32,000 bases of DNA, from contig CP066689.1 of assembly GCA_016432445.1 (NCBI GenBank), forward strand, positions 510,001 to 542,000, read 5' to 3'. Origin of the DNA: Candidatus Saccharimonadota bacterium. Its GTDB lineage: Bacteria > Patescibacteriota > Microgenomatia > UBA1406 > GWC2-37-13. The notes under the pieces were generated by a model. That model was not told the origin of the DNA and did not search any database. It saw nothing but the letters and a program-made list of their open reading frames with translations. Position numbers and translations under genes: made by a program. Numbering within the stretch: the stretch's first letter is position 1; every line of letters starts with the position of its first letter. Shown in pieces: positions 9,111-21,143 of the stretch.

Positions 9111-10079
9111 TTAGTTTAAATATTTGGCGATATTGGCGTTGTGTTCTTCAAGAGTGCGGGCGTAGCGCATTTTTCCGTCCTTGCCGGTTATATAAAACAT
9201 ATAAGGAGTTGATGGATCAGCATTGGCAACTGCATTTAATGAAGAAAAACTAGGGTTAGATATTGGCTCCGGGGGTAGTCCAGTGTTTAAATAAGTATTG
9301 TAAGGAGATTTTATTTTTAAATCCTCAAGGGTAAGATTTTTTTTCCACCATGTTTTTTCTTTTGGCTGATAGCCTAAAGCATACTGTATAGTAGCATCAA
9401 CCTGTAAAGGTACTTCGTTTTGCAGTCTTTTTAGCAAAATGCTGGCAACTTTCTGCCTAGCCTCATCAGATCTGGCTTCTCTTTCCACAAGTGATGCTAG
9501 TGTTACTGCTTCAGGTTCTGTTAATTCTAAATTTTTAACTTTAGTTTTTAGTTCATTAGTAAAACGCTGTTTGAAAGTAAAGTTTAAAATATCAATTATA
9601 CCTCCTGCTGTTGCCTGCCGGGGAATAAGGTAAGTATCTGGGAAAAGATAACCTTCTTCTGACTGGCTAATAAATTCTACTTCAGGGATATCAAGGCTCT
9701 TTGAAAAAATCTGAGCTACTTCTTCTTTACGCAAGCCTTCAATAATAGTTACCCAGACATCAAGGGTTCCATGAGTTAAGGTTTCCGCTATCTCATCAGC
9801 ATTCATTGAAGGTGAGAGCCTAAAGTCTCCAGCTTGAATTTTTTTCTCGATTCCCTTTTGTTTAATAATGAAATAAAAAACAACACTGTTTCTGATTAGT
9901 CCCTCGCGGGAAAGATTTTTTACAATATTATTAAGGCTTTCTCCTGGTTTAATAACGAATATTTTTGTAGATTTCTCATTTTTATCAACTGCGAGAGTAC
10001 CTTCCTTGTAAAAAAAATATAAGAAAGTAATCGCTAAGATAATTAAAGTAAAAACAGCTATGAACTTAGTCGATCTCAT
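9111..10079 (-). CDS. mltG: endolytic murein transglycosylase MltG (YceG family)
   Basis: 322 aa. Single N-terminal TM. YceG-like motifs LASLVEREA and YNTYLNTGLPPEPISNPS. Confidence 0.9.
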   Translation of the reverse strand: MRSTKFIAVFTLIILAITFLYFFYKEGTLAVDKNEKSTKIFVIKPGESLNNIVKNLSREGLIRNSVVFYFIIKQKGIEKKIQAGDFRLSPSMNADEIAETLTHGTLDVWVTIIEGLRKEEVAQIFSKSLDIPEVEFISQSEEGYLFPDTYLIPRQATAGGIIDILNFTFKQRFTNELKTKVKNLELTEPEAVTLASLVEREARSDEARQKVASILLKRLQNEVPLQVDATIQYALGYQPKEKTWWKKNLTLEDLKIKSPYNTYLNTGLPPEPISNPSFSSLNAVANADPSTPYMFYITGKDGKMRYARTLEEHNANIAKYLN

Positions 10080-11331
10080 ATATGGGCATATTTTGTAATG
10101 TTACCTCAGCTTCTTTTATCCGATAGCGGTCCTGAGAATAAAATAAAAGCAAAGGTTCTTTTTTTTCGACTTTTTCGTCAACCTTTTTTAAAAGATAAAT
10201 TCCGGCATATTTATCTTCCGGTGCACCCAAAATTTTAGCTACTGAATTCAAATTGTAATTGTTAATTTCCTTAATTGTACCATTTTTTTTAGGAAGAACT
10301 TCTTTTTTATGGGCTTTAGTTTTAAAGTTATCAGACGTTACTTGGTCATCTCCGCCTTGAGCTTTGATGATTTCTTTAAATTTTTTCAAAGCAATTCTTT
10401 CACTTAAGATTCTTCGTGCTTCCTCTTCTCCACTTTTATTAATGTGAGCATCCTTAAAACAAATAGTTAGAAGTTTTCCAGCCAAGCGTAAGGCTTTAGC
10501 CTCTAGTTTCAATGGCCTGTCTTTTTTTTGTTCTAAAACTTCAAGAACATCTTTGGCTTCAAGATATGGGCCGACGCCGCGTCCGGCCGGTTCAAATGTT
10601 TCACTTATATCAGTTATAACTTCCATATCAAAATGTTTACCTATCATCCTAAATTTTTTAGCCACTTTTTCCGCATCCTCAAAATGTCTTATTTTCATAG
10701 TTTTTCCAACAGGAATATCAAGAATTAAATGATTAGTTGAAGCGGCTACTTTTTTGGCCATAATTGAAACAATGACTTTGTCGAAGGATTCAAAAGATAA
10801 AGGTTCTTCGATTTTAATAATTATGTCATCAGCTGGTGCTATTCCTAAGTGACCTCCCCAGACTATGCAGCCACCGATATCATTAACAATTGATTCTATT
10901 TTTCTTTCGCTGATCATAACATTGCCCAAAAGTTCCATCACGTCGGCCGTGCCGGCTGGCGTAGTAATGGCTCGTGATGAAGTTTTGGGTATCTTAAATC
11001 CGGCGGCAGCTATTATGGGGACAATAATCATTGTGGTTCGAGTGCCGGCTACTCCTCCTGTTGAGTGTTTATCAGCAACAATACCTTTAAAATTAAGCTT
11101 AGTCCCTGTTTCTACCATGGCTCGGGTTAGGTAAACTAACTCTTCAGTTGAGAAGCCTTCTTTAAATGAAGCGGCTACAAAATAAGTTGTTAAGATATCG
11201 CTTAGCCGTTTATGGGAGATTTCATTCATTAAGTTAAAAACTTCACGGTAGGTAAGTTTTTTCCCAAGTAGTTTGTTTTGAATAGCTTTGATAGCTTCAA
11301 GATGGTGTTTGGTGTTTACAGCAGGGTTCAT
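10066..11331 (-). CDS. thymidine/pyrimidine-nucleoside phosphorylase family protein (possible AMP phosphorylase type)
   Basis: 421 aa. Glycosyltransferase family 3 core with DKHSTGGVAGTRTT and a C-terminal PYNP-like domain. Substrate specificity cannot be assigned from sequence by eye. Overlaps murJ (ATGA, 4 nt) and mltG (14 nt). Confidence 0.8.
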   Translation of the reverse strand: MNPAVNTKHHLEAIKAIQNKLLGKKLTYREVFNLMNEISHKRLSDILTTYFVAASFKEGFSTEELVYLTRAMVETGTKLNFKGIVADKHSTGGVAGTRTTMIIVPIIAAAGFKIPKTSSRAITTPAGTADVMELLGNVMISERKIESIVNDIGGCIVWGGHLGIAPADDIIIKIEEPLSFESFDKVIVSIMAKKVAASTNHLILDIPVGKTMKIRHFEDAEKVAKKFRMIGKHFDMEVITDISETFEPAGRGVGPYLEAKDVLEVLEQKKDRPLKLEAKALRLAGKLLTICFKDAHINKSGEEEARRILSERIALKKFKEIIKAQGGDDQVTSDNFKTKAHKKEVLPKKNGTIKEINNYNLNSVAKILGAPEDKYAGIYLLKKVDEKVEKKEPLLLFYSQDRYRIKEAEVTLQNMPIYEID

Positions 11332-13057: not shown

Positions 13058-13939
13058 TTAATCTATGATTTTAATATCACCATCAAATTTAAGTTTTTTT
13101 AATTTCTTCAACTCTAAAATTTGGTTTTTAGTTTGTTTAGATGAGACAATAAAAGATTCATTTTCCTTTCCAACTTCTTGAAGGTGGGGAAAGGTAGAAG
13201 CGAAATCATTAATATTTAAGTTATGTATGTCCAATTTCCTTCCGACTTTTCTTAAATTTGGGACTAATGCTAGGTTTGAATCATTAATATAACAACTAAA
13301 ATAAATTTCCTCAAGTGATGGAAAAGGATTCGTTTCATTCGATTGGATATATATATGTCCTGCTTTCTTAAGTTTGGGAGCTGATTTGATCCTCCCCCCA
13401 AAAAAACCTGCTACTTCTTCCAATGAATCAAAACAAACTGAATGTTTGGTAATTTCCAAATTACCGCCAACCTTTTTTAGTCTTTTAACAGAAGATATGT
13501 TTGTATTATGAGCCATTAAATTTCCATCTACTTCTTCCAAATAATCAAGAGACTTGAGAGAATTAAAAGGGAAACTGGTATTGCCGAATATTTTTTTTAT
13601 AATATTGGGAAAATAACTTGCATTTCCAGGTTGCTCATAATCCATTTTAAGGATAACTCTTTGGGAATCATCAAATAATAATGCTGGGGTAAAAGTATCA
13701 AGATCGTCTCCATGAGATTGATAGCGCCAAATTCTCAAAATCTCTATCACTTTTTTCTGAAAATCATCAGATAATTTTTGTTTACTGCCGGCAATATCTG
13801 AGCATCTATCATCAAGACGAGTTCTGACTTCATCTGTTGGGTTTCTTATGTATTCATCTATTGTTTCTGATAAAACCCTGAGTTTATCTTCCAAAGGCGC
13901 AAGCCGGTCTTTGAAGGTTTGGCAGTAAGTGGTTAACAT
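13058..13939 (-). CDS. solenoid-repeat paralog 1 ([FY]CQTF N-module + LEEV/LKKxG repeats + KLKF-G tail), unknown function
   Basis: 293 aa. MLTTYCQTFKDRL..., FDDSQRVIL, YFPNIIKKIFG. LEE-type units DYLEEVDG, DSLEEVAG, PSLEEIYF, PHLQEVGK alternate with RLKKVGGN, KLKKAGHI, NLRKVGRK. Tail KLKFDGDIKI. No signal peptide or TM. Confidence 0.8.
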   Translation of the reverse strand: MLTTYCQTFKDRLAPLEDKLRVLSETIDEYIRNPTDEVRTRLDDRCSDIAGSKQKLSDDFQKKVIEILRIWRYQSHGDDLDTFTPALLFDDSQRVILKMDYEQPGNASYFPNIIKKIFGNTSFPFNSLKSLDYLEEVDGNLMAHNTNISSVKRLKKVGGNLEITKHSVCFDSLEEVAGFFGGRIKSAPKLKKAGHIYIQSNETNPFPSLEEIYFSCYINDSNLALVPNLRKVGRKLDIHNLNINDFASTFPHLQEVGKENESFIVSSKQTKNQILELKKLKKLKFDGDIKIID

Positions 13940-13942
13940 ATA

Positions 13943-15016
13943 TTATTCAACTTTTATTTTCCCATTGAAGCTCAATCTTCCGTTTTCTCTTAAAGCTTCA
14001 ATTTGTTTTTTAATGTAATTTCTAGGTACATGAAAAGATTCATCTTCATTATCATTATTTCTTGTAGAACCAACAGCTGATAGATTAGGAAAAGCACTAT
14101 GGAAGTCAGTTATCTTAGTTTTATCAATAATCATTCTTCCTCCGATTCTTCTTAAGCTTGGTAGAGATATTGCCGGATTGCTCGACTTGATTGTAAAACT
14201 ATCTGTGACTTCTTCCAATAAAGGTAAAGGATCAGTATTATGTGTCTTAATATCGATGCTTCCGGCCTTTTTGAGTTTTGGTGAAGAATCGCAGTGTGCA
14301 TAAAATTCTTCTCCGACTTCTTCAAGTAATGGAAATTGTGTTAATGTATCTACCACAGAAGTGAGATGTGAACCCACTCTTTTCAAGCGAGGTAATGATG
14401 TAATCTTTTTACTATAGTCGATGTTTAAATAACCTTGAACTTCTTCTAAATAATCCATCTGTGTAAGTGATTCTGCGAATATGAGTGCGTTACCGCCAAT
14501 TTTTTTTAATCTGCCAATTGATTGTAATAAAGGAGCGATATTTATACGAAAATCTCCTTCGATTTCTTCTAAATAATCTAAATTTGTTATATGTGATCCA
14601 TATAAGTCTAAATCTCCAATAATTTTTCTTATCAAACCCGGAAAATAGCTAAGAAAAGAGTTTTTGTTACCACGGTAGAAAGGGTTAATAGCAGGGACTG
14701 GCTGATCTTGGGAACTGTAATTAATGTTTCCTTTAATAACAACTCTTTGATTATCCTCAAAATCTATACTTCTCAAGAACTCTTCTCTTTGCTTTTTATC
14801 AGTATAGGGATACCAATGCATGAGCATCTCTTTTACCTGTTGCTGGTACTCTCCAACAAAATCTTGGTGAAGAGCCTTTAATTCATTAAATCTTTTTTCT
14901 AATTCTTGAGAAGGATTTGACATATACGCAAGTACTAAATTATCAATTTCCCTTAATTGCTCAGGCAAAGGTTTAAATCTTTCTTGAAATGTTTGACAGA
15001 AAGTAATAGGGGACAT
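13943..15016 (-). CDS. solenoid-repeat paralog 2 (same family, one extra repeat pair)
   Basis: 357 aa. MSPITFCQTFQERF..., HWYPYTD, FEDNQRVVI, YFPGLIRKIIG. Five LEE-type units (DYLEEIEG, DYLEEVQG, PLLEEVGE, PLLEEVTD, PNLSAVGS) and four L[KR][KR]xG units. Tail RLSFNGKIKV. 3-nt gaps to both neighbours. Confidence 0.8.
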   Translation of the reverse strand: MSPITFCQTFQERFKPLPEQLREIDNLVLAYMSNPSQELEKRFNELKALHQDFVGEYQQQVKEMLMHWYPYTDKKQREEFLRSIDFEDNQRVVIKGNINYSSQDQPVPAINPFYRGNKNSFLSYFPGLIRKIIGDLDLYGSHITNLDYLEEIEGDFRINIAPLLQSIGRLKKIGGNALIFAESLTQMDYLEEVQGYLNIDYSKKITSLPRLKRVGSHLTSVVDTLTQFPLLEEVGEEFYAHCDSSPKLKKAGSIDIKTHNTDPLPLLEEVTDSFTIKSSNPAISLPSLRRIGGRMIIDKTKITDFHSAFPNLSAVGSTRNNDNEDESFHVPRNYIKKQIEALRENGRLSFNGKIKVE

Positions 15017-15019
15017 ATT

Positions 15020-16933
15020 TTATTTAATCAAAATATCTGCCAGCAGTTTTTCTAATGTCGGTAGAAGATCTTCTATTCTTCTTAACTTTTGTCCTTTTTC
15101 GCCCCATTCAAATTGAAAAGGGTCATCATGAAGAGAGTTTTCAACAGGTTTATCTACCATTTTTTCTTTTATTTCATCAGGCAGGTTTATTATTGAGTAG
15201 TCGGGCGGAATCTGGATTGCGCGGCAAATTACTCCCTTTTCCTCAAGCAGTTTTATAGCCCCTTTGCCGTCTTCTGGTTTTTCTGTTGCACCATCTGTAA
15301 TTTCAATGAGAATCCGCAGTGTATCTTTAGGATCGCTGGCAGGAAGTTTACTAAGCTCGTCGAGAACCTGCTTAAAAGCAGAGTAGTCGTATGTCCCGTC
15401 TAAACATTGGTGTGAGTTTATCGTTGTGTCAAGAAGATTATCTTCTGACTGTTGCGGGTTATCGCTTATTCTTCGATTATAAGAAGTAAAGGCACGAGTG
15501 CCGTAAGGGACAATCATAAGACTTACCCGTACAGGAAAAACAGTATTATTTATTTGTCCTTCTTTAGTAAAGAGGATAAGCGATTGTCCTATGGCATATT
15601 CAGCATCTTCCTCAAGATTAATGATTTTTTGTCCACTTTGAAACGTACTTCCTGAGTAATCTACTGGAAGCATAATGACTATTTCCTTCGGATGAATTTC
15701 TTCTCCTGAAGGCACCATAAGATCTTTTTCAAAAATAGCGGCGCTGGCTGGATTAGAGAGAAGATTAGCTAACTGTCCGGGAATACTGGAAAAATTAACT
15801 CTTGTTCCTGAAGTGAAGCCGGGAATAGCCTGAAGAGATTCTTGGAATGATTTTTGAATTAGACGCCACCAAAGATCTTTAAGGTTATTTATTACCTGTG
15901 CAGTTCTTTCTTTTCTTTCCCACATGGTTTGGATTTCTTCATCACTATGCCCGCAGTTTTTCATCCTTTCTTCGAAATCTTTTCTTTGGTTTTCTTTGGC
16001 ATTTTGGCTTGATGAGCGGTTTTTTTTATCTAAATATTTATCAACCTCTTTAAAATTATCCGCATCTGTCGGATCAAAATCTTCATCAATGTCGCCGTCC
16101 TCCTCTTCGTTATCCTCACCTTCAGCGTTTTTAGGCTTTTGAGAACGGTTATTATCAATATCATCCTGCAGAAGTTTTTCAAATACCGGCATAACAACAT
16201 TCTTTAAAGAAAAAATAGCTGACGCTAAAGATGGAGCTTGCTGAACTTCTGCTCTTATAAAATCTTCCATTGAGTCATAGTGAGTTCCCAGGAAATCTAT
16301 AGGTTGAGCAAGAACTTGGGCTACTTGGGGGCTGACATTAATTTGAGCATCAGGCACCATAAGTTTTTTTATTGTATAGTCTAAAAGCTGAGAGTGATGA
16401 GGTCTTTGCGAATAATCAGCTCCCGGGAAAAGTTTTTTATCGTAAAGTTCGGTTGGTGTTTCTTGCCACTTTTCGCCCGGCTGGAAAGCCTGCATTCTTT
16501 TTACAATCCGGTTATTGTCATTAAGATCGAGGTAAATATTGAAAAACTTTTTCCAGGCTCTTTTATGCGCCGGGTTGTCGCCTGCTTTAGCTTTAATTAT
16601 TTCAAAGACCTGTTTATAAGTTATTGGATCTTCAAGGTATTGAAGGAAGTGGCCTATTTCATGACCTAAGACAAAAACTCTTTCAGGAGTAGTGAGCTGA
16701 AGTTTTTCTGATAACTGCGAGCCAAAGTGAGCTGTAGGAGTGTCTTCGTGTGTAAAGAAAGCTTTTTTTCCGGGATAAACACGGATTTTTATGCCGGTGC
16801 CTGCCATAACCTCACTGGCCCACTGTAAAGATTCGACGTGCTTGCGAATTTCCGGATCAACAGGTTTATCTGGAGGCGGTTTTCCTCCTAAGGCGGCAAG
16901 ATATTGGGGATGTTGTAAATCTTCATAAGACAT
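15020..16933 (-). CDS. HExxH metallopeptidase-motif + von Willebrand A (MIDAS) domain protein
   Basis: 637 aa. VFVLGHEIGHFLQY (HEIGH = nt 16649-16663). Acidic linker KPKNAEGEDNEEEDGDIDEDFDPTDAD. C-terminal VWA-like region with IVIMLPVDYSGST (DxSxS = nt 15647-15661), and later LDGT and ILIEITDG. No signal peptide. Confidence 0.8.
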   Translation of the reverse strand: MSYEDLQHPQYLAALGGKPPPDKPVDPEIRKHVESLQWASEVMAGTGIKIRVYPGKKAFFTHEDTPTAHFGSQLSEKLQLTTPERVFVLGHEIGHFLQYLEDPITYKQVFEIIKAKAGDNPAHKRAWKKFFNIYLDLNDNNRIVKRMQAFQPGEKWQETPTELYDKKLFPGADYSQRPHHSQLLDYTIKKLMVPDAQINVSPQVAQVLAQPIDFLGTHYDSMEDFIRAEVQQAPSLASAIFSLKNVVMPVFEKLLQDDIDNNRSQKPKNAEGEDNEEEDGDIDEDFDPTDADNFKEVDKYLDKKNRSSSQNAKENQRKDFEERMKNCGHSDEEIQTMWERKERTAQVINNLKDLWWRLIQKSFQESLQAIPGFTSGTRVNFSSIPGQLANLLSNPASAAIFEKDLMVPSGEEIHPKEIVIMLPVDYSGSTFQSGQKIINLEEDAEYAIGQSLILFTKEGQINNTVFPVRVSLMIVPYGTRAFTSYNRRISDNPQQSEDNLLDTTINSHQCLDGTYDYSAFKQVLDELSKLPASDPKDTLRILIEITDGATEKPEDGKGAIKLLEEKGVICRAIQIPPDYSIINLPDEIKEKMVDKPVENSLHDDPFQFEWGEKGQKLRRIEDLLPTLEKLLADILIK

Positions 16934-16942
16934 AAATATTTG

Positions 16943-19069
16943 TTAGGCCGCGGCTCCCATAATAGCAGCTTCATCTTTACAGAAGAGTTGAAGCGCGCCT
17001 TTATCTCCTGTTTCTTTATCAAACTTATTAAACTCACGTAAAAAAGTGGCAATTTCGTCTCTTTTATGCTGCATTTCGCTTATTTTTGCCATAACTAGCT
17101 CGCGGCTTGGTGCGTTAGTTTTTCCTTCAACAGTAGTAACTGTTATGGTTTCCGGCATTTTATAGCCTGCAAAGGCTTCAGCCACTTCTTGGGCTGTGAA
17201 AAGCTTCAATCGCTGATCAGCTATGGAGACGTCATTTTTATTGATTGCGCCGTTAAGTTTTAGATTTTTTGAGGCCTGTTCTATCTCTAATTTTCCTTCC
17301 CAATAATTGCCTTCAAAAAAACCATAACTATTTTTCATGATGCTAAAAAAATATGCAGCTTCGCGGGGAGCTATAACGCTTGTTGGTCTAATTAGATGTT
17401 CGTAGAGATGGTAGTCTAATGGATATCTGAAGCCTTCAGCTTTCCAGCTTTTTAAAATATCCACAAGAGTACGCATCGAGGCATGTGATTGCTGAAGTCT
17501 TAACTCTGTGCCGTCAGAAAATTTATCAGAATCCCGGAGCGGTTTTCCGGCAAAATTATTTTGGAAAACCTTAAAAGCTTGAGTCATCTTCCATACCTTT
17601 TCTAAAGAGTCCTCTGGTGCGTAAAGATTACCTTTTTGATCAACCAGTATAGCCATACTTATTTGAAAAAGCTCTCTTTTTTTAGGTTTTTCTCCATTTT
17701 TTCTTTTTACGCTGTCGATAACACAGTTATTTAAGGTAAGATCAATCTCATCCTGAGGGGGAGTGTTGTACTCAAAAAGACCGGAATTAAGCCTGTTTAT
17801 GAAAGCCGGATCAAGAGCCGATCTTTCAAGGTATCTCTGGGCATTAGAAAGACTTAAGTTTCCGGTAAATATAATGCCAAACCCCTTCTTTACCTCAATT
17901 TTATTGCCGGCCGGAGTGATTATAAACGATCCGGGTCTAGTCTGCATAACCTCATTTATAGAGGCAAGAAGAGCTGGATTAATATAATTAAACTCATCAA
18001 TAATAACTATTTTTCCTTCTTCGGCCGCTTTCATAACTTGTCCCAAAAATTCTTTAGGGCTAAACTGAGGCGTACTGCTTTGATTTAAGACTATCTGATC
18101 AATAGTTTTCAATCTTTCCTCAAGTTCGGTGGCTTCCATATCTCCTTGAACCATTTGTAGGTATCTTGCTTTAGCTTCTTCAGAGAGTCTTAGTGCTTGC
18201 TCAGGCGCTACGACTTTAGTTTCTAACCCAAGAAAAGAGAGAAGATCTTCTCGGGTGGTAAATTTATGTCCGGTTACAAAATAATAAGGAGAGCCTTTTT
18301 CGCCTAGGTGAAACTTTTTGTAGCTTTCGGTAGCAATTCTTTTTGAAACCTGGGTTTTCCCAGTGCCGGTCTCGCCGACCAAAGCAACCATTCCTTTTTG
18401 CATCAGTTTTAGAGTGATTTCTTCTTCAAGGTTAGCCAGTGTTTCTGTAGTGACGATATTGGTGGTGTTAAGCTGGTGTTTAAAATCTCTTAACTGCAGT
18501 AAGTTGTGGGCAAGGAAAGACTCAGGATCAATAAAAGGCAGCTGATCTTTATAAACTCCTCTAAGATTCTTTATCATTTCTTCATAATTATTTTTCTGAT
18601 CGATTGTAGCGGCATTAACCCGGTTGGTATCTAGAGCTGCCGATTCTTTTAAGGAGCGCAGTTCACTCTGCATAGCGTTAATAACATTCTTTATGTTAGT
18701 TGCGTTGACAATATATCCTCTTAGTCTACCGGTACTTTCCTGAATTAGTATATTTTGTTCCTCATCTGTGCCCAATTTTCCCGCTTCTACCCTTAATGTT
18801 TCTCTTTCTTTAGCTAATCTTTCAATACCTCCTGATGTTTGAATCTCTTCAGCGCCGACAGCTACTTGTTCTAAGGTTGCTTTTTCAGGTGGAATATAAC
18901 GGTTATAAAGATTCCAGGCTTTAGAAAGAGTATCATTTGGGGATGGATGACTTTGCTTAGCGTCTCTTACTTCTGGTTGAGAAATATCATATCGATCATG
19001 ACTTCGCAGTTTTTGCATAACAGCATAAAGCTCGTTGTTTTGTATAGGAACTTCGACTAGATTTGGCAT
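16943..19069 (-). CDS. AAA+ ATPase, MoxR / dynein-midasin-related (AAA_5-like) type, with long N- and C-terminal extensions
   Basis: 708 aa. Walker A MVALVGETGTGKT (nt 18353-18376). Walker B KIVIIDEFN (VIIDEF = nt 17990-18007). FGIIFTGN (sensor 1 Asn), ALDPAFINRL, and a lid-like SMRTLVDIL. About 220-aa coiled-coil-like N-terminal region. About 115 aa lie between Walker A and Walker B. Confidence 0.85.
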   Translation of the reverse strand: MPNLVEVPIQNNELYAVMQKLRSHDRYDISQPEVRDAKQSHPSPNDTLSKAWNLYNRYIPPEKATLEQVAVGAEEIQTSGGIERLAKERETLRVEAGKLGTDEEQNILIQESTGRLRGYIVNATNIKNVINAMQSELRSLKESAALDTNRVNAATIDQKNNYEEMIKNLRGVYKDQLPFIDPESFLAHNLLQLRDFKHQLNTTNIVTTETLANLEEEITLKLMQKGMVALVGETGTGKTQVSKRIATESYKKFHLGEKGSPYYFVTGHKFTTREDLLSFLGLETKVVAPEQALRLSEEAKARYLQMVQGDMEATELEERLKTIDQIVLNQSSTPQFSPKEFLGQVMKAAEEGKIVIIDEFNYINPALLASINEVMQTRPGSFIITPAGNKIEVKKGFGIIFTGNLSLSNAQRYLERSALDPAFINRLNSGLFEYNTPPQDEIDLTLNNCVIDSVKRKNGEKPKKRELFQISMAILVDQKGNLYAPEDSLEKVWKMTQAFKVFQNNFAGKPLRDSDKFSDGTELRLQQSHASMRTLVDILKSWKAEGFRYPLDYHLYEHLIRPTSVIAPREAAYFFSIMKNSYGFFEGNYWEGKLEIEQASKNLKLNGAINKNDVSIADQRLKLFTAQEVAEAFAGYKMPETITVTTVEGKTNAPSRELVMAKISEMQHKRDEIATFLREFNKFDKETGDKGALQLFCKDEAAIMGAAA

Positions 19070-19075
19070 ATTTTT

Positions 19076-19104
19076 AATCTATAATATATCCATTACTATT
19101 TCAA
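19076..19104 (-). promoter_or_regulatory. candidate internal promoter for the AAA+ gene, leaderless geometry
   Basis: The minus strand reads TTGAAA (19104-19099), 17-nt spacer, TAGATT (19081-19076), then 6 nt to ATG (19069). It sits in the only sizeable (61-nt) gap of the operon. Confidence 0.4.
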
Positions 19105-19130
19105 GAGATTATTTTTATAAAATATTGTTC

Positions 19131-20096
19131 TTAATTACTTACAACTGCGAGTTCTCCTGTAAATTTAAGTTTACCTGCGTTTTGCAATTTTAATACTTGC
19201 TCTTTAACTTCTTCAGAAGACACTGATACTGATTCATCCTGTGAAGAACCATTACCTCTACCTATTTCTTCCAACTGAGGAAATGTTTCTTCAAAATCTA
19301 TATATGCAAGTTTATTAATGAATAAAGCACCTTTAATTTTTCTTAATTTTGCCGCCGATTTAAAAATTGATGATTGTCGAAAAGTATGTGAAATTCCAAT
19401 AACTAAATCTCCATGGACTTCTTCCAGAGCAGGTAAAAAGCGAATGTTTGTACCAGATAAATCAAAATTACCTGTTTTTTTTAATCCGTTAAGTGATTTT
19501 AATACTGGAGATTCTACAAACGTATAACCTCCGGTTTCTTCCAAAGAATCTAAATGTTTGAGACCAATATTATGTATGTGTAATGATCCTGTTTTTTTTA
19601 ATCTTGCCATTGATTTTAAGTAAGGTAGATTATTTAAAGTTAAGCTATCGACTTCTTCTAAATAATCTACAAATTCAGTAGAAAGATTTTGTAGTGTTAA
19701 TATACCGGCTACTTTTCTGATTAAGTTAGGAAGAAATATTTTCTCATAGGTGCGATGTCCGTGTGGATCGCCATAAATTGCTTTTCCTAAATGTAAGTTG
19801 TTGTTTACCACCACTCTTTGATTATCTTCAAAACCTATGTTTTGCATAAAATTCTTCTTTTGCTCTTCATCAGTATACGGATACCACTGCATAAGTAAAT
19901 CTCTTGCATGTTGTTGGTATTCTTTAATTAAAGCTTGTTTTTCTCCATCAATCTTTGACATTAGATCGGTTAGTTTTTGATCATTTTCTGGATATGGGTT
20001 TGAGATGTAAGATTTTAATTCTTCTTCTAAAGCAGGGAATTGATCGGCAAGTGGTTTGAGTCTCTCTCGAAAGGTTTGGCAAAAGGTTTGCGGCAT
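19131..20096 (-). CDS. solenoid-repeat paralog 3
   Basis: 321 aa. MPQTFCQTFRERL..., QWYPYTDEEQ, FEDNQRVVV, FLPNLIRKVAG. Units DYLEEVDS, DSLEETGG, PALEEVHG, PQLEEIGR alternate with RLKKTGSL, GLKKTGNF, KLRKIKGA. Tail KLKFTGELAV. Confidence 0.8.
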   Translation of the reverse strand: MPQTFCQTFRERLKPLADQFPALEEELKSYISNPYPENDQKLTDLMSKIDGEKQALIKEYQQHARDLLMQWYPYTDEEQKKNFMQNIGFEDNQRVVVNNNLHLGKAIYGDPHGHRTYEKIFLPNLIRKVAGILTLQNLSTEFVDYLEEVDSLTLNNLPYLKSMARLKKTGSLHIHNIGLKHLDSLEETGGYTFVESPVLKSLNGLKKTGNFDLSGTNIRFLPALEEVHGDLVIGISHTFRQSSIFKSAAKLRKIKGALFINKLAYIDFEETFPQLEEIGRGNGSSQDESVSVSSEEVKEQVLKLQNAGKLKFTGELAVVSN

Positions 20097-20105
20097 AAAA
20101 AAATA

Positions 20106-21038
20106 TTACCATTTTCCACTCTCATAATCTATATCACCATTGAATTTTAATTCACCTTTTTTTTCTAGATCTTTAATTTGTTTCCTAATATCTTCATTTG
20201 GTACAAAAAATGCTGTATTTATACGAAGTCCTATAGGAGCGCTGGTGGGTCTAACTTCTTCCAATACAGGAAAAACTGCTCTAAAATCGTCAATTTTTAA
20301 ATCTGATATATCAAGTGTGCCGCCTACTTTTCTGAGTTTTTTCATTGATACTAAACTGTTATTTAAAGAACAGTCCGCTACAACTTCCTCAAGTAAATCG
20401 AGCCTTTCAATACAAGTTCCGCTAAAATCAGCGTCTCCTCTCACTTTTTTTAATTTAGGTAATGATTTTAAGCTCTGAACATTATTTAAATCAAGACCGC
20501 CGGCTTCTTCTAAGCTTTCCAGCGATTCAATATTTGTGTTAGCGAAATTTGCATTACCGCCAATTCTTCTTAATCTTTTCATAGATCTTAAGCTGGAAGA
20601 ATTATTTACAAGAAGACTACCGTCAACTTCTTCAAGATAATCAATAAATGTCATTGCTTCGTTGTTACACCGTAAATCGCCAGTAATCTTTCTTATAAGA
20701 GACGGGATGTAGAAAATTTGAGCAAGAGGTCCGCCAGAATTTATAGCACAATCAATAATAACTCTTTGTGAGTTTTCAAAGCGGACAGATGATAAAAAAT
20801 CAGATATGTTTACGTGTGCACCATGAGGGTACCATTTTTTAAGCATTAGTATCACCTGTGATTGATATTTCTCAACAAATTTTTGTTTACTTGCATAAAT
20901 CTTAGCGATTAATTCTTCAGTTTGTACCAGCCCGGAAGGGTCTGACAATAATCGTGATACTTCAGCATCAGTAGTAGAGAATAAGCTCGAAAGAGACAAG
21001 ATTTCCTTTTGAAAAGTTTGGCAGTAGGCGGTGGTCAT
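20106..21038 (-). CDS. solenoid-repeat paralog 4
   Basis: Track ORF 20106..21062 begins at a TTG. ATG 21038 gives MTTAYCQTFQKE..., aligning with the other three N-termini. KWYPHG, FENSQRVII, YIPSLIRKITG. Units DYLEEVDG, ESLEEAGG, DLLEEVVA, PVLEEVRP alternate with RLRRIGGN, KLKKVRGD, KLRKVGGT. Tail ELKFNGDIDY. Confidence 0.8.
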   Translation of the reverse strand: MTTAYCQTFQKEILSLSSLFSTTDAEVSRLLSDPSGLVQTEELIAKIYASKQKFVEKYQSQVILMLKKWYPHGAHVNISDFLSSVRFENSQRVIIDCAINSGGPLAQIFYIPSLIRKITGDLRCNNEAMTFIDYLEEVDGSLLVNNSSSLRSMKRLRRIGGNANFANTNIESLESLEEAGGLDLNNVQSLKSLPKLKKVRGDADFSGTCIERLDLLEEVVADCSLNNSLVSMKKLRKVGGTLDISDLKIDDFRAVFPVLEEVRPTSAPIGLRINTAFFVPNEDIRKQIKDLEKKGELKFNGDIDYESGKW

Positions 21039-21114
21039 GATTTTAAGTATATAAAAAAACAATTGAATTCGTTAGGAGTTTTGCGTTATGGGTCTAGGTT
21101 GAACTTAATTCCTC

Positions 21115-21143
21115 TTGACATCTGATGGGAAATGGCGTTAAAT
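21115..21143 (+). promoter_or_regulatory. candidate dcw (mraZ) promoter, leaderless geometry
   Basis: Consensus TTGACA (21115-21120), 17-nt spacer, TTAAAT (21138-21143), then 8 nt to ATG 21152. ATGG motifs recur at 21132, 21142 and 21152 (10-nt phase). Confidence 0.5.

Follow-up and report, generated by a model that had tools for sequence, protein, structure and literature searches.

The window analyzed here is a stretch of 32,000 nucleotides from contig CP066689.1 of Candidatus Saccharimonadota bacterium, and this study concerns its minus-strand block at 13058–21038, in which six co-directional open reading frames (ORFs) lie between murJ and mraZ (Table 1). Two of the genes encode an AAA_5 ATPase and a protein in which an acidic linker joins a zincin-like HExxH domain to a VWA domain with its metal ion-dependent adhesion site (MIDAS). 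The other four, S1 to S4, encode solenoid-repeat paralogs, referred to below as the SOL family. The successive gaps between the genes are 3, 3, 9, 61 and 9 nt, so that the ORF coordinates bear out the six co-directional genes and gap sizes reported in an initial annotation of this DNA. The block is flanked by MurJ (Pfam 3.5e-68) and by a divergent MraZ (Pfam 1.9e-27), which is followed by RsmH and a penicillin-binding protein. None of the six proteins has a transmembrane or signal-like segment (maximum Kyte-Doolittle(19) value ≤1.29). Scans for promoters and terminators returned site numbers no higher than in shuffled sequence, and the terminator scan found no minus-strand terminator-like site within the block.

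Table 1. Features of the six-gene block in window coordinates, with motif positions checked by translation of the ORFs.
Feature	Position	Strand	Details
S1, receptor-type paralog	13058-13939	-	293 aa; Cys6 codon 13922-13924; SOL-family hidden Markov model (HMM) match
S2, receptor-type paralog	13943-15016	-	357 aa; Cys7 codon 14996-14998; R91 invariant
Zincin-linker-VWA protein	15020-16933	-	637 aa; HExxH domain, acidic linker, VWA
VWA domain	15179-15691	-	~aa 415-585; MIDAS also includes T514 and D547
MIDAS D425-x-S427-x-S429	15647-15661	-
Acidic linker	16019-16168	-	aa 256-305; followed by long predicted helices before VWA
Zincin-like domain	16334-16846	-	~aa 30-200
HEIGH motif	16649-16663	-
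AAA_5 (MoxR/midasin-type) ATPase	16943-19069	-	708 aa; Pfam AAA_5
Conserved Cys697 of ATPase	16979-16981	-	within C-terminal region
AAA core of ATPase	17792-18388	-	aa 228-426
Walker A GETGTGKT	18353-18376	-
S3, receptor-type paralog	19131-20096	-	321 aa; Cys6 codon 20079-20081; SOL-family HMM match
S4, receptor-type paralog	20106-21038	-	310 aa from ATG; Cys6 codon 21021-21023; SOL/SOLN HMM matches
Alternative TTG start of S4	21062	-
Divergent intergenic region S4/mraZ	21039-21124	no strand	86 nt; presumed, on gene layout alone, to be the promoter region of the six-gene unit

The three families recur adjacent to one another in about 20 loci that differ in lineage, gene order and flanking genes, and there is strong support for a functional link among the six genes. 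About 30 loci were compared, obtained as the contigs of ATPase homologs (32–41% identity) and from scans of genome and metagenome collections, and all their ORFs were searched with family HMMs. The ATPase, zincin-VWA and SOL families are found together in the window and in L001, L003, L004/5, L008, L009, L010, L023, L024 and L028. ATPase and SOL genes stand without a VWA gene in L006, L007, L012, L015, L022 and L030; the contig ends in L007 and L030, and in the remaining four the VWA gene is not within reach. The short contigs L011, L013, L014, L018 and L019 carry ATPase and VWA genes. Wherever the flanking sequence is long enough, genes for proteins with the N-terminal Cys domain of the SOL family lie beside the ATPase gene, and all SOL HMM matches in the fetched loci fall inside these clusters. 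The association is thus not a peculiarity of this genome, the outcome that the initial annotation had named as speaking against its proposal.

Fifteen (15) other loci share with the window an adjacent pair of ATPase and VWA genes; in the window, 9 nt separate them. Around this pair, the order in the window is SOLx2-AAA-VWA-SOLx2, compared with SOL-SOL-AAA-VWA-SOL in L003, AAA-VWA-SOLx5 in L001, AAA-VWA-SOLx2 in L004/5, SOLx4-AAA-VWA in L009 and, in the distant Gracilibacteria locus L020, VWA-AAA followed by four paralogs. SOL genes are interposed between the two in L010 (Saccharibacteria; SOL-AAA-SOLx3-VWA) and L028 (SOL-AAA-SOL-VWA-SOL). Each locus carries one to five receptor copies, and the genes are co-directional and tightly packed throughout. 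Since order and copy number differ elsewhere, the arrangement as two tandem pairs that the initial annotation stressed is particular to this genome. Genomic context also varies, with murJ/mraZ in the window, nusG-secE in L003 and copper genes in a low-GC lineage; since these neighbors change between lineages, the module appears to move as one unit. Scans of viral contigs, phage records and family models (PHROGs) and plasmids did not find it. At two of the loci, L004 (11810–12214) and L005 (12023–12427), a 37-aa ORF and about 290 nt of non-coding sequence separate the ATPase and VWA genes, a junction that is tight elsewhere. At L022 (216–2227), the ATPase gene beside the SOL gene is split into ORFs of 406 and 217 aa, which may reflect a decaying copy or an assembly error.

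The secure taxonomic labels among these loci belong to Patescibacteria (Roizmanbacteria, Saccharibacteria, Moranbacteria and ‘Patescibacteria group’). The module is also carried by a low-GC (28–30%) thermophile lineage, for which the earlier framing in terms of an episymbiont is too narrow. One metagenome-assembled genome (MAG) of this lineage is labeled Aenigmatarchaeota. However, in the genes noted at L007 (817–2417) and L028 (15051–16937), the contig with this label has the beta (732 bits) and epsilon subunits of F0F1 ATP synthase, and reverse gyrase (606 bits) is found on a sister contig. The low-GC lineage is thermophilic; its domain is uncertain and the archaeal label doubtful. Locus L009 (DASPLQ010000012.1, 1.41 Mb) is labeled Vitreimonas sp., but the 22 kb fetched have a GC content of 42%, a contig of this size is usual for a small genome, and the label may be wrong. 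Because of these three observations, a distribution across the Candidate Phyla Radiation (CPR) plus DPANN archaea was considered and downgraded. Proteobacterial, Bdellovibrionota and Dictyoglomus labels belong to 3–6-kb contigs of MAG bins. In L004, L005, L006, L007, L008 and L028, genes for a CsoR-like Trns_repr_metal repressor, a DUF411 protein and a P-type ATPase lie directly upstream of the ATPase gene, and in the low-GC lineage SIMPL and Macro-domain genes follow the module. The copper-gene linkage in this lineage may reflect shared synteny or point to a function.

The ATPase of the window matches Pfam AAA_5 with 46.3 bits (5.6e-12; cut-off 22), and the consensus of its family, whose members are 650–780 aa long, does so with 58.6 bits. 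The closest solved structures are the AAA modules of midasin (9e-11), as found with a profile of 36 ATPase sequences against the PDB. Conversely, the consensus reaches only 17.4 bits against Pfam AAA_3, the model for MoxR proper, which is under the cut-off of 27. Among the named NCBIfam subfamilies (RavA, CbbQ/NorQ, GvpN and CobS), GvpN alone gave a score, of 14.9 bits against a cut-off of 266.8. Walker A, the DEF of Walker B (IIDEF), the sensor-1 residue N404, R416 and R426 are invariant in the alignment of the 36 sequences (A1). With its catalytic motifs intact, the ATPase is apparently active, and it is probably a ring-forming remodeling motor. The ATPase begins with a variable, helical stretch of ~180 aa, and its C-terminal ~280 aa form a family-specific region for which no PDB relatives were found. 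This region carries Cys697, the column of which is invariant in a 13-sequence alignment. In 17 of the 17 core-family ATPases examined, including those of loci without VWA, a Cys lies 4–18 residues from the C-terminus in the motif ‘LFC-x-DE’. This C-terminal Cys mirrors the N-terminal Cys of the SOL proteins described below. At the distant locus L026, the ATPase has no C-terminal Cys and the adjacent paralogs have no N-terminal Cys; as a single case, this is only suggestive.

The zincin-VWA protein of the window gives no Pfam match by itself. Pfam VWA is matched by 4 of 12 family members, the best at 1.6e-07, and by the family consensus with 34.6 bits (cut-off 23.8); the family profile also finds integrin I domains in the PDB at about 6e-4. 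The MIDAS residues D425, S427, S429, T514 and D547 are invariant in the 12 sequences. From the profile matches and this alignment, the presence of a VWA domain in the family is clear, and its MIDAS is complete. In the HExxH domain, H91, E92, H95, N132, D136, N140 and Q182 are invariant among 16 sequences with identities down to 21%, and the helix N132-x3-D136-x3-N140 is a candidate site for the third zinc ligand. A profile of this domain places minigluzincins at the top of the PDB matches (4jiu, proabylysin; 4jix, projannalysin; 4qhf, MJ1213/selecase; E 0.0024–0.01), through an alignment of about 64 residues in which beta-strands run into the HExxH helix. A third search for relatives, with the 12-sequence profile of the zincin-VWA family, returned two proteins only, both found already in the previous searches.

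Translation reproduces the motifs that the initial annotation had listed, namely GETGTGKT, IIDEF, IFTGN and ALDPAFINRL in the ATPase and HEIGH, the acidic stretch, DYSGS, T514 and TDG in its partner. Its two labels hold as well: the MoxR/midasin-like AAA+ assignment agrees with the 46-bit AAA_5 match and with the midasin modules that rank best in the PDB, and the HExxH-VWA assignment agrees with the invariance of both motifs.

The SOL proteins S1 to S4 are mutual paralogs, with BLASTP E values of 1e-42 to 1e-57 and pairwise identities of 31–34%. Judging from these values, they are old and about equidistant paralogs rather than the products of two recent tandem duplications. Pfam Recep_L_domain (cut-off 21.8) is matched by S2 (36.7 bits, 5e-09) and S4 (30.1 bits, 5.6e-07), and S1 and S3 fall narrowly under the cut-off. 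Thus, the paralogy described in the initial annotation stands, but the family is not wholly unrecognized as had been stated there, as its repeats match Recep_L_domain, in S2 and S4 above threshold. An AlphaFold2 (AF2) model of S2 (predicted local distance difference test score [pLDDT] 79; predicted template modeling score [pTM] 0.70) consists of a four-helix N-domain (aa 3–83) and a beta-solenoid with strands, or rungs, about 20 aa apart; the S2 solenoid is two rungs longer than those of its paralogs. The best Foldseek matches of this model in the PDB are leucine-rich repeat (LRR) and L-domain proteins, although these are weak and none reaches E ≤0.001.

Searches with the S1–S4 profile return 2805 clusters (50% identity) at E ≤1e-3 and 89 at E ≤1e-30, and the N-domain is present in 89 of the top 150 clusters. 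A Cys lies within the first 30 residues in all 74 representatives with a complete N-domain, at position 3–12 in 72 of them. The residue at C+3 is F or L in 74/74, and Q occupies C+1 in 40/74. Only two N-domain residues are 100% invariant in the 74 representatives, namely this Cys and an Arg located where the solenoid starts (R91 of S2). The total Cys content of these proteins is 0.9%, and in S3, Cys6 is the sole Cys. The family N-terminus reads M-x(1-10)-C, and the 2–11 residues ahead of the Cys are variable in length and unconserved. For S4, the ATG start is favored over the alternative TTG because family comparison then puts the conserved Cys at residue 6. A reading of the Cys as part of a lipoprotein or signal peptide was rejected, since a hydrophobic segment is lacking: the longest hydrophobic run in the 74 proteins is ≤6 residues, and Kyte-Doolittle values in the six-gene block are ≤1.29.

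Lengths in the SOL family range from 211 to 506 aa, and repeat number varies. Repeat type varies too, being L-domain-like in the window and canonical LRR in L020, with Pfam LRR_4 matches in the low-GC loci. The four tandem paralogs of L020 (11299–15979; Gracilibacteria) combine an ‘MHLCE(E/K)LQQ’ helical N-domain with canonical LRRs (LxxLxLxxNxLTxLPxEIG), which implies that the repeat type is exchangeable and the N-terminal Cys module retained. The paralogs of L028 have N-domains that are 98–99% identical, whereas the remainder is 81–94% identical. Giant proteins of up to 6498 aa (P0075, P0076, P0085, P0118 and others) match the SOL profile in their repeat part only, so this L-domain-like repeat occurs as well in very large proteins, which are presumably located at the surface.

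Several known systems resemble parts of this module. In the described MoxR-vWA ternary systems, the third components are VMAP, iSTAND, iSTAND2, TERNS3, FtsH or beta-propeller proteins, and effectors follow the vWA domain on its C-terminal side (Kaur et al., 2020, PMC7159879; Kaur et al., 2021, PMC8195603). Like these systems, the module places a MoxR-type ATPase gene beside a vWA protein with a helical, charged linker and adds a system-specific third component with a variable, non-enzymatic recognition module; peptidase domains also occur in some ternary systems. The SOL family gives no Pfam or PADLOC match of those six third-component kinds. Instead, the third component here is a family of N-terminal Cys-helical domains joined to LRR/L-domain solenoids, in one to five copies. 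The zincin is N-terminal to the vWA domain, which is itself C-terminal, with no effector domain after it. Effector-associated domains (EADs) are absent from the module, and its partner proteins contain no homotypic N-domain copy; EAD-like homotypic docking was rejected after hhalign comparison of the SOL N-domain with the N- and C-terminal regions of the ATPase and the N-terminal and linker regions of the VWA protein gave probabilities below 1%. The module also differs in its ATPase, which is AAA_5/midasin-like with large family-specific N- and C-terminal regions, and in its hosts, which are small-genome Patescibacteria and not multicellular bacteria.

The likeness to midasin/Rea1 lies in the combination of AAA_5, acidic linker and MIDAS and in the logic of pulling on a MIDAS-bound partner. 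Midasin has six AAA_5 modules, a D/E-rich linker and a MIDAS that binds the ubiquitin-like (UBL) domains of Rsa4 and Ytm1. In the module, by contrast, AAA and MIDAS are on separate chains with one AAA per chain, a zincin is added, solenoid partners replace the UBL domains, and the context is prokaryotic and non-ribosomal. The HExxH domain shares its strands and HExxH helix with minigluzincins and M48/M56-type zincins and has weak Pfam similarity to M48, M78 and SprT-like families. However, its scores are under the family cut-offs, it has N-x3-D-x3-N in place of the minigluzincin third-ligand helix, and it continues into a linker and a VWA domain. In DUF2201_N/DUF2201 proteins (COG3864), a putative metallopeptidase domain with HExxH likewise precedes a VWA-like domain beside an AAA_5/MoxR-type ATPase gene, and a downstream motif ascribed to them, W-N-x-A-x-D-x-x-x-N, resembles the N-x3-D-x3-N of the zincin-VWA family. 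Pfam scans do not support membership in DUF2201/COG3864, as neither PF13203 nor PF09967 was matched by the 12 members at E ≤1 or by the consensus at E ≤10. The module protein is also about 200 aa longer and has an acidic helical linker. We know of no solenoid third component with DUF2201, and the literature searched is essentially silent on this family. As functional analogies only, the F-box/LRR receptors of SCF ligases likewise put a short constant N-terminal dock before a variable LRR solenoid and supply many paralogs to one core, and FtsH couples an AAA+ motor to an HExxH zincin protease. Unlike the former, the module has no ubiquitin machinery, and ASK1-D3 appears only among weak fold matches (E ~1); unlike FtsH, it carries protease and motor on different chains, with the VWA protein as a bridge.

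Pfam, NCBIfam, PADLOC and PHROGs assign the set to no characterized operon type, and literature searches found no description of an AAA_5/zincin-VWA/solenoid triad. This agrees with the view of the initial annotation that no described system matches the locus; placement in a characterized type was the other outcome that it had named as refuting its proposal. MoxR-vWA ternary systems are the closest described kind, and the module is best read as an apparently undescribed variant of them, differing in its third component, peptidase position, phyletic range and ATPase subfamily.

For the function of the module we favor, at somewhat less than an even chance, a new kind of MoxR-vWA ‘ternary’ machine, in which the three families form a self-contained unit and the solenoid paralogs serve one core as exchangeable target receptors. 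This core would consist of one AAA_5 ATPase and one zincin-linker-VWA protein, in which the long acidic, helical linker would join a MIDAS peptide-capture domain to a probable zinc peptidase. One to five soluble paralogs would serve it, each built from a Cys-helical N-terminal domain that stays constant and an LRR/L-domain-type solenoid that varies, and would act as interchangeable target-recognition subunits. The receptor N-domain would dock on the ATPase/zincin-VWA core. ATP hydrolysis, relayed through the VWA protein, would then remodel the receptor–target complex and gate the zincin, which would cleave the bound target or the N-terminus of the receptor itself. In known MoxR-vWA systems, the vWA protein captures a peptide, the ATPase remodels the bound partner, and a system-specific third component is present (Kaur et al., 2020, PMC7159879). 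It is because of this precedent that the solenoids are read as recognition subunits docking through their N-domain, and the mechanism is plausible as an extrapolation from the established MoxR-VWA pairs. We infer in this way the physical association of the proteins, the receptor role of the solenoids, the peptidase activity and the biological role, which may be defense, regulated proteolysis or assembly. The retention of ATPase and SOL genes without VWA in four loci suggests direct contact between receptor and ATPase. A more specific and quite unlikely version uses the terminal cysteines as a switch. Here, the N-terminal Cys of the receptor would cap the zinc of the zincin in trans (a ‘cysteine switch’) or pair with the ATPase tail, and the binding of a ligand to the LRR-type solenoid, together with ATP-driven pulling through VWA/MIDAS, would uncap the protease.

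Several observations weigh against the receptor-gated machine. Judging from the same four AAA+SOL loci, the module may do without the peptidase/VWA subunit or have it encoded at another site. The HExxH domain is probably a zincin peptidase, on good circumstantial but borderline sequence evidence that yields no family assignment: the family consensus reaches Pfam M48 at 0.0058 with 16.9 bits, below the cut-off of 20.3, and M78 (0.044) and SprT-like (0.11) are sub-threshold as well. An AF2 model of the zincin-VWA protein, built from two sequences, is unusable (pLDDT 32). The peptidase of the initial annotation is tentative, with the invariance of HExxH and the borderline profile matches in its favor. 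No effector is evident beyond this predicted peptidase. In the bacterial loci, conservation of the N-domain does not exceed that of the repeats, at about 30–39% each. The idea of a constant dock and a variable sensor therefore rests on the two invariant residues and on the archaeal-like L028.

The alternatives differ in how much of the module they explain. That the six genes are mere neighbors with no joint function is extremely improbable; the promoter and terminator scans are uninformative, but the recurrence of the families across lineages, orders and flanks effectively refutes it. It is somewhat unlikely that the SOL proteins are substrates of an assembly chaperone like midasin/Rea1, RavA-ViaA or CbbQ-CbbO, with the zincin processing an N-terminal peptide to expose or modify the Cys. 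The short unconserved leader, the invariant Cys after it and the universal hydrophobic residue at C+3 are typical of a processing or modification site, AAA+SOL is the minimal conserved unit, and characterized MoxR-VWA pairs are mostly maturation or assembly factors (Kaur et al., 2020, PMC7159879). Yet L006, L012, L015 and L022 keep the N-terminal Cys without a zincin-VWA gene, so that processing by the zincin is not obligatory, and several diverged paralogs with differing repeat types fit recognition modules better than one structural client.

A system of conflict or immunity, in which the LRR-like paralogs would sense invader or host proteins and proteolysis would lead to abortive infection or to attack on a partner cell, is unlikely. 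Its architecture does parallel the Kaur/Aravind ternary conflict systems, of which it would then be a further type, with a MoxR-vWA switch and a variable third component, but the known examples are found preferentially in multicellular bacteria rather than in CPR (Kaur et al., 2020, PMC7159879). PADLOC yields only a generic ATPase match (mad8, 4e-07). The varying copy number of the LRR-type arrays would suit such a role, although the paralogs are old (~30% identity) and not rapidly diversifying. Similarly, the patchy distribution and lineage-dependent position suggest lateral mobility, whereas the module is absent from the viral contigs, phage records and plasmids scanned. Upstream genes encode a restriction-modification (RM) system in L006 and HicAB in L004/L005; conversely, housekeeping genes surround the module in the window, L003, L012 and L015. 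With housekeeping flanks in several loci, no defense-island support, no PADLOC fit and no phage or plasmid link, the defense or host-interaction role proposed in the initial annotation is unsupported. Metal-cofactor handling is very unlikely. Under this reading, the AAA-VWA pair would act in metal insertion or transfer, as CoxD/CoxE, NorQ/NorD and CobS/CobT do, with the terminal cysteines as ligands, and several characterized MoxR-VWA pairs are indeed metal insertases (Kaur et al., 2020, PMC7159879). An invariant single Cys is found at the SOL N-terminus and near the C-terminus of the core-family ATPases, but a single Cys per protein is a poor metal site. The position of the module directly downstream of the CsoR-type repressor, DUF411 and P-type ATPase genes is limited to the low-GC lineage, absent from all CPR loci and probably shared synteny. 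In addition, no target metalloenzyme is encoded nearby, and the LRR-type solenoids and the HExxH domain would be left unexplained.

MoxR-VWA pairs are widespread and their partners or substrates are mostly unknown; here, strict co-occurrence identifies a partner family with a simple Cys and Arg signature. An investment of six genes and 8 kb in reduced genomes implies an important function. If the solenoids are interchangeable receptors of an ATP-driven protease, the module would be a further type of MoxR-vWA ternary system, would extend such systems from multicellular bacteria to ultra-small Patescibacteria, and would provide a prokaryotic case of LRR-type recognition coupled to proteolysis. 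If the terminal-cysteine switch also holds, it would be an LRR-receptor-gated, AAA-driven protease with immune-like or F-box-like recognition in minimal CPR genomes. The module is compact enough for heterologous expression.

Two further features of the window lie outside the block. Rfam and tRNA scans across the window gave no match, and no such match accounts for the GC content of 47% at positions 1–1000, compared with 30–40% in the rest of the window. Beyond murJ, the minus-strand gene at 10066–11331 encodes a thymidine/AMP-phosphorylase-type enzyme (Glycos_transf_3 and PYNP_C) and overlaps murJ by 4 nt.

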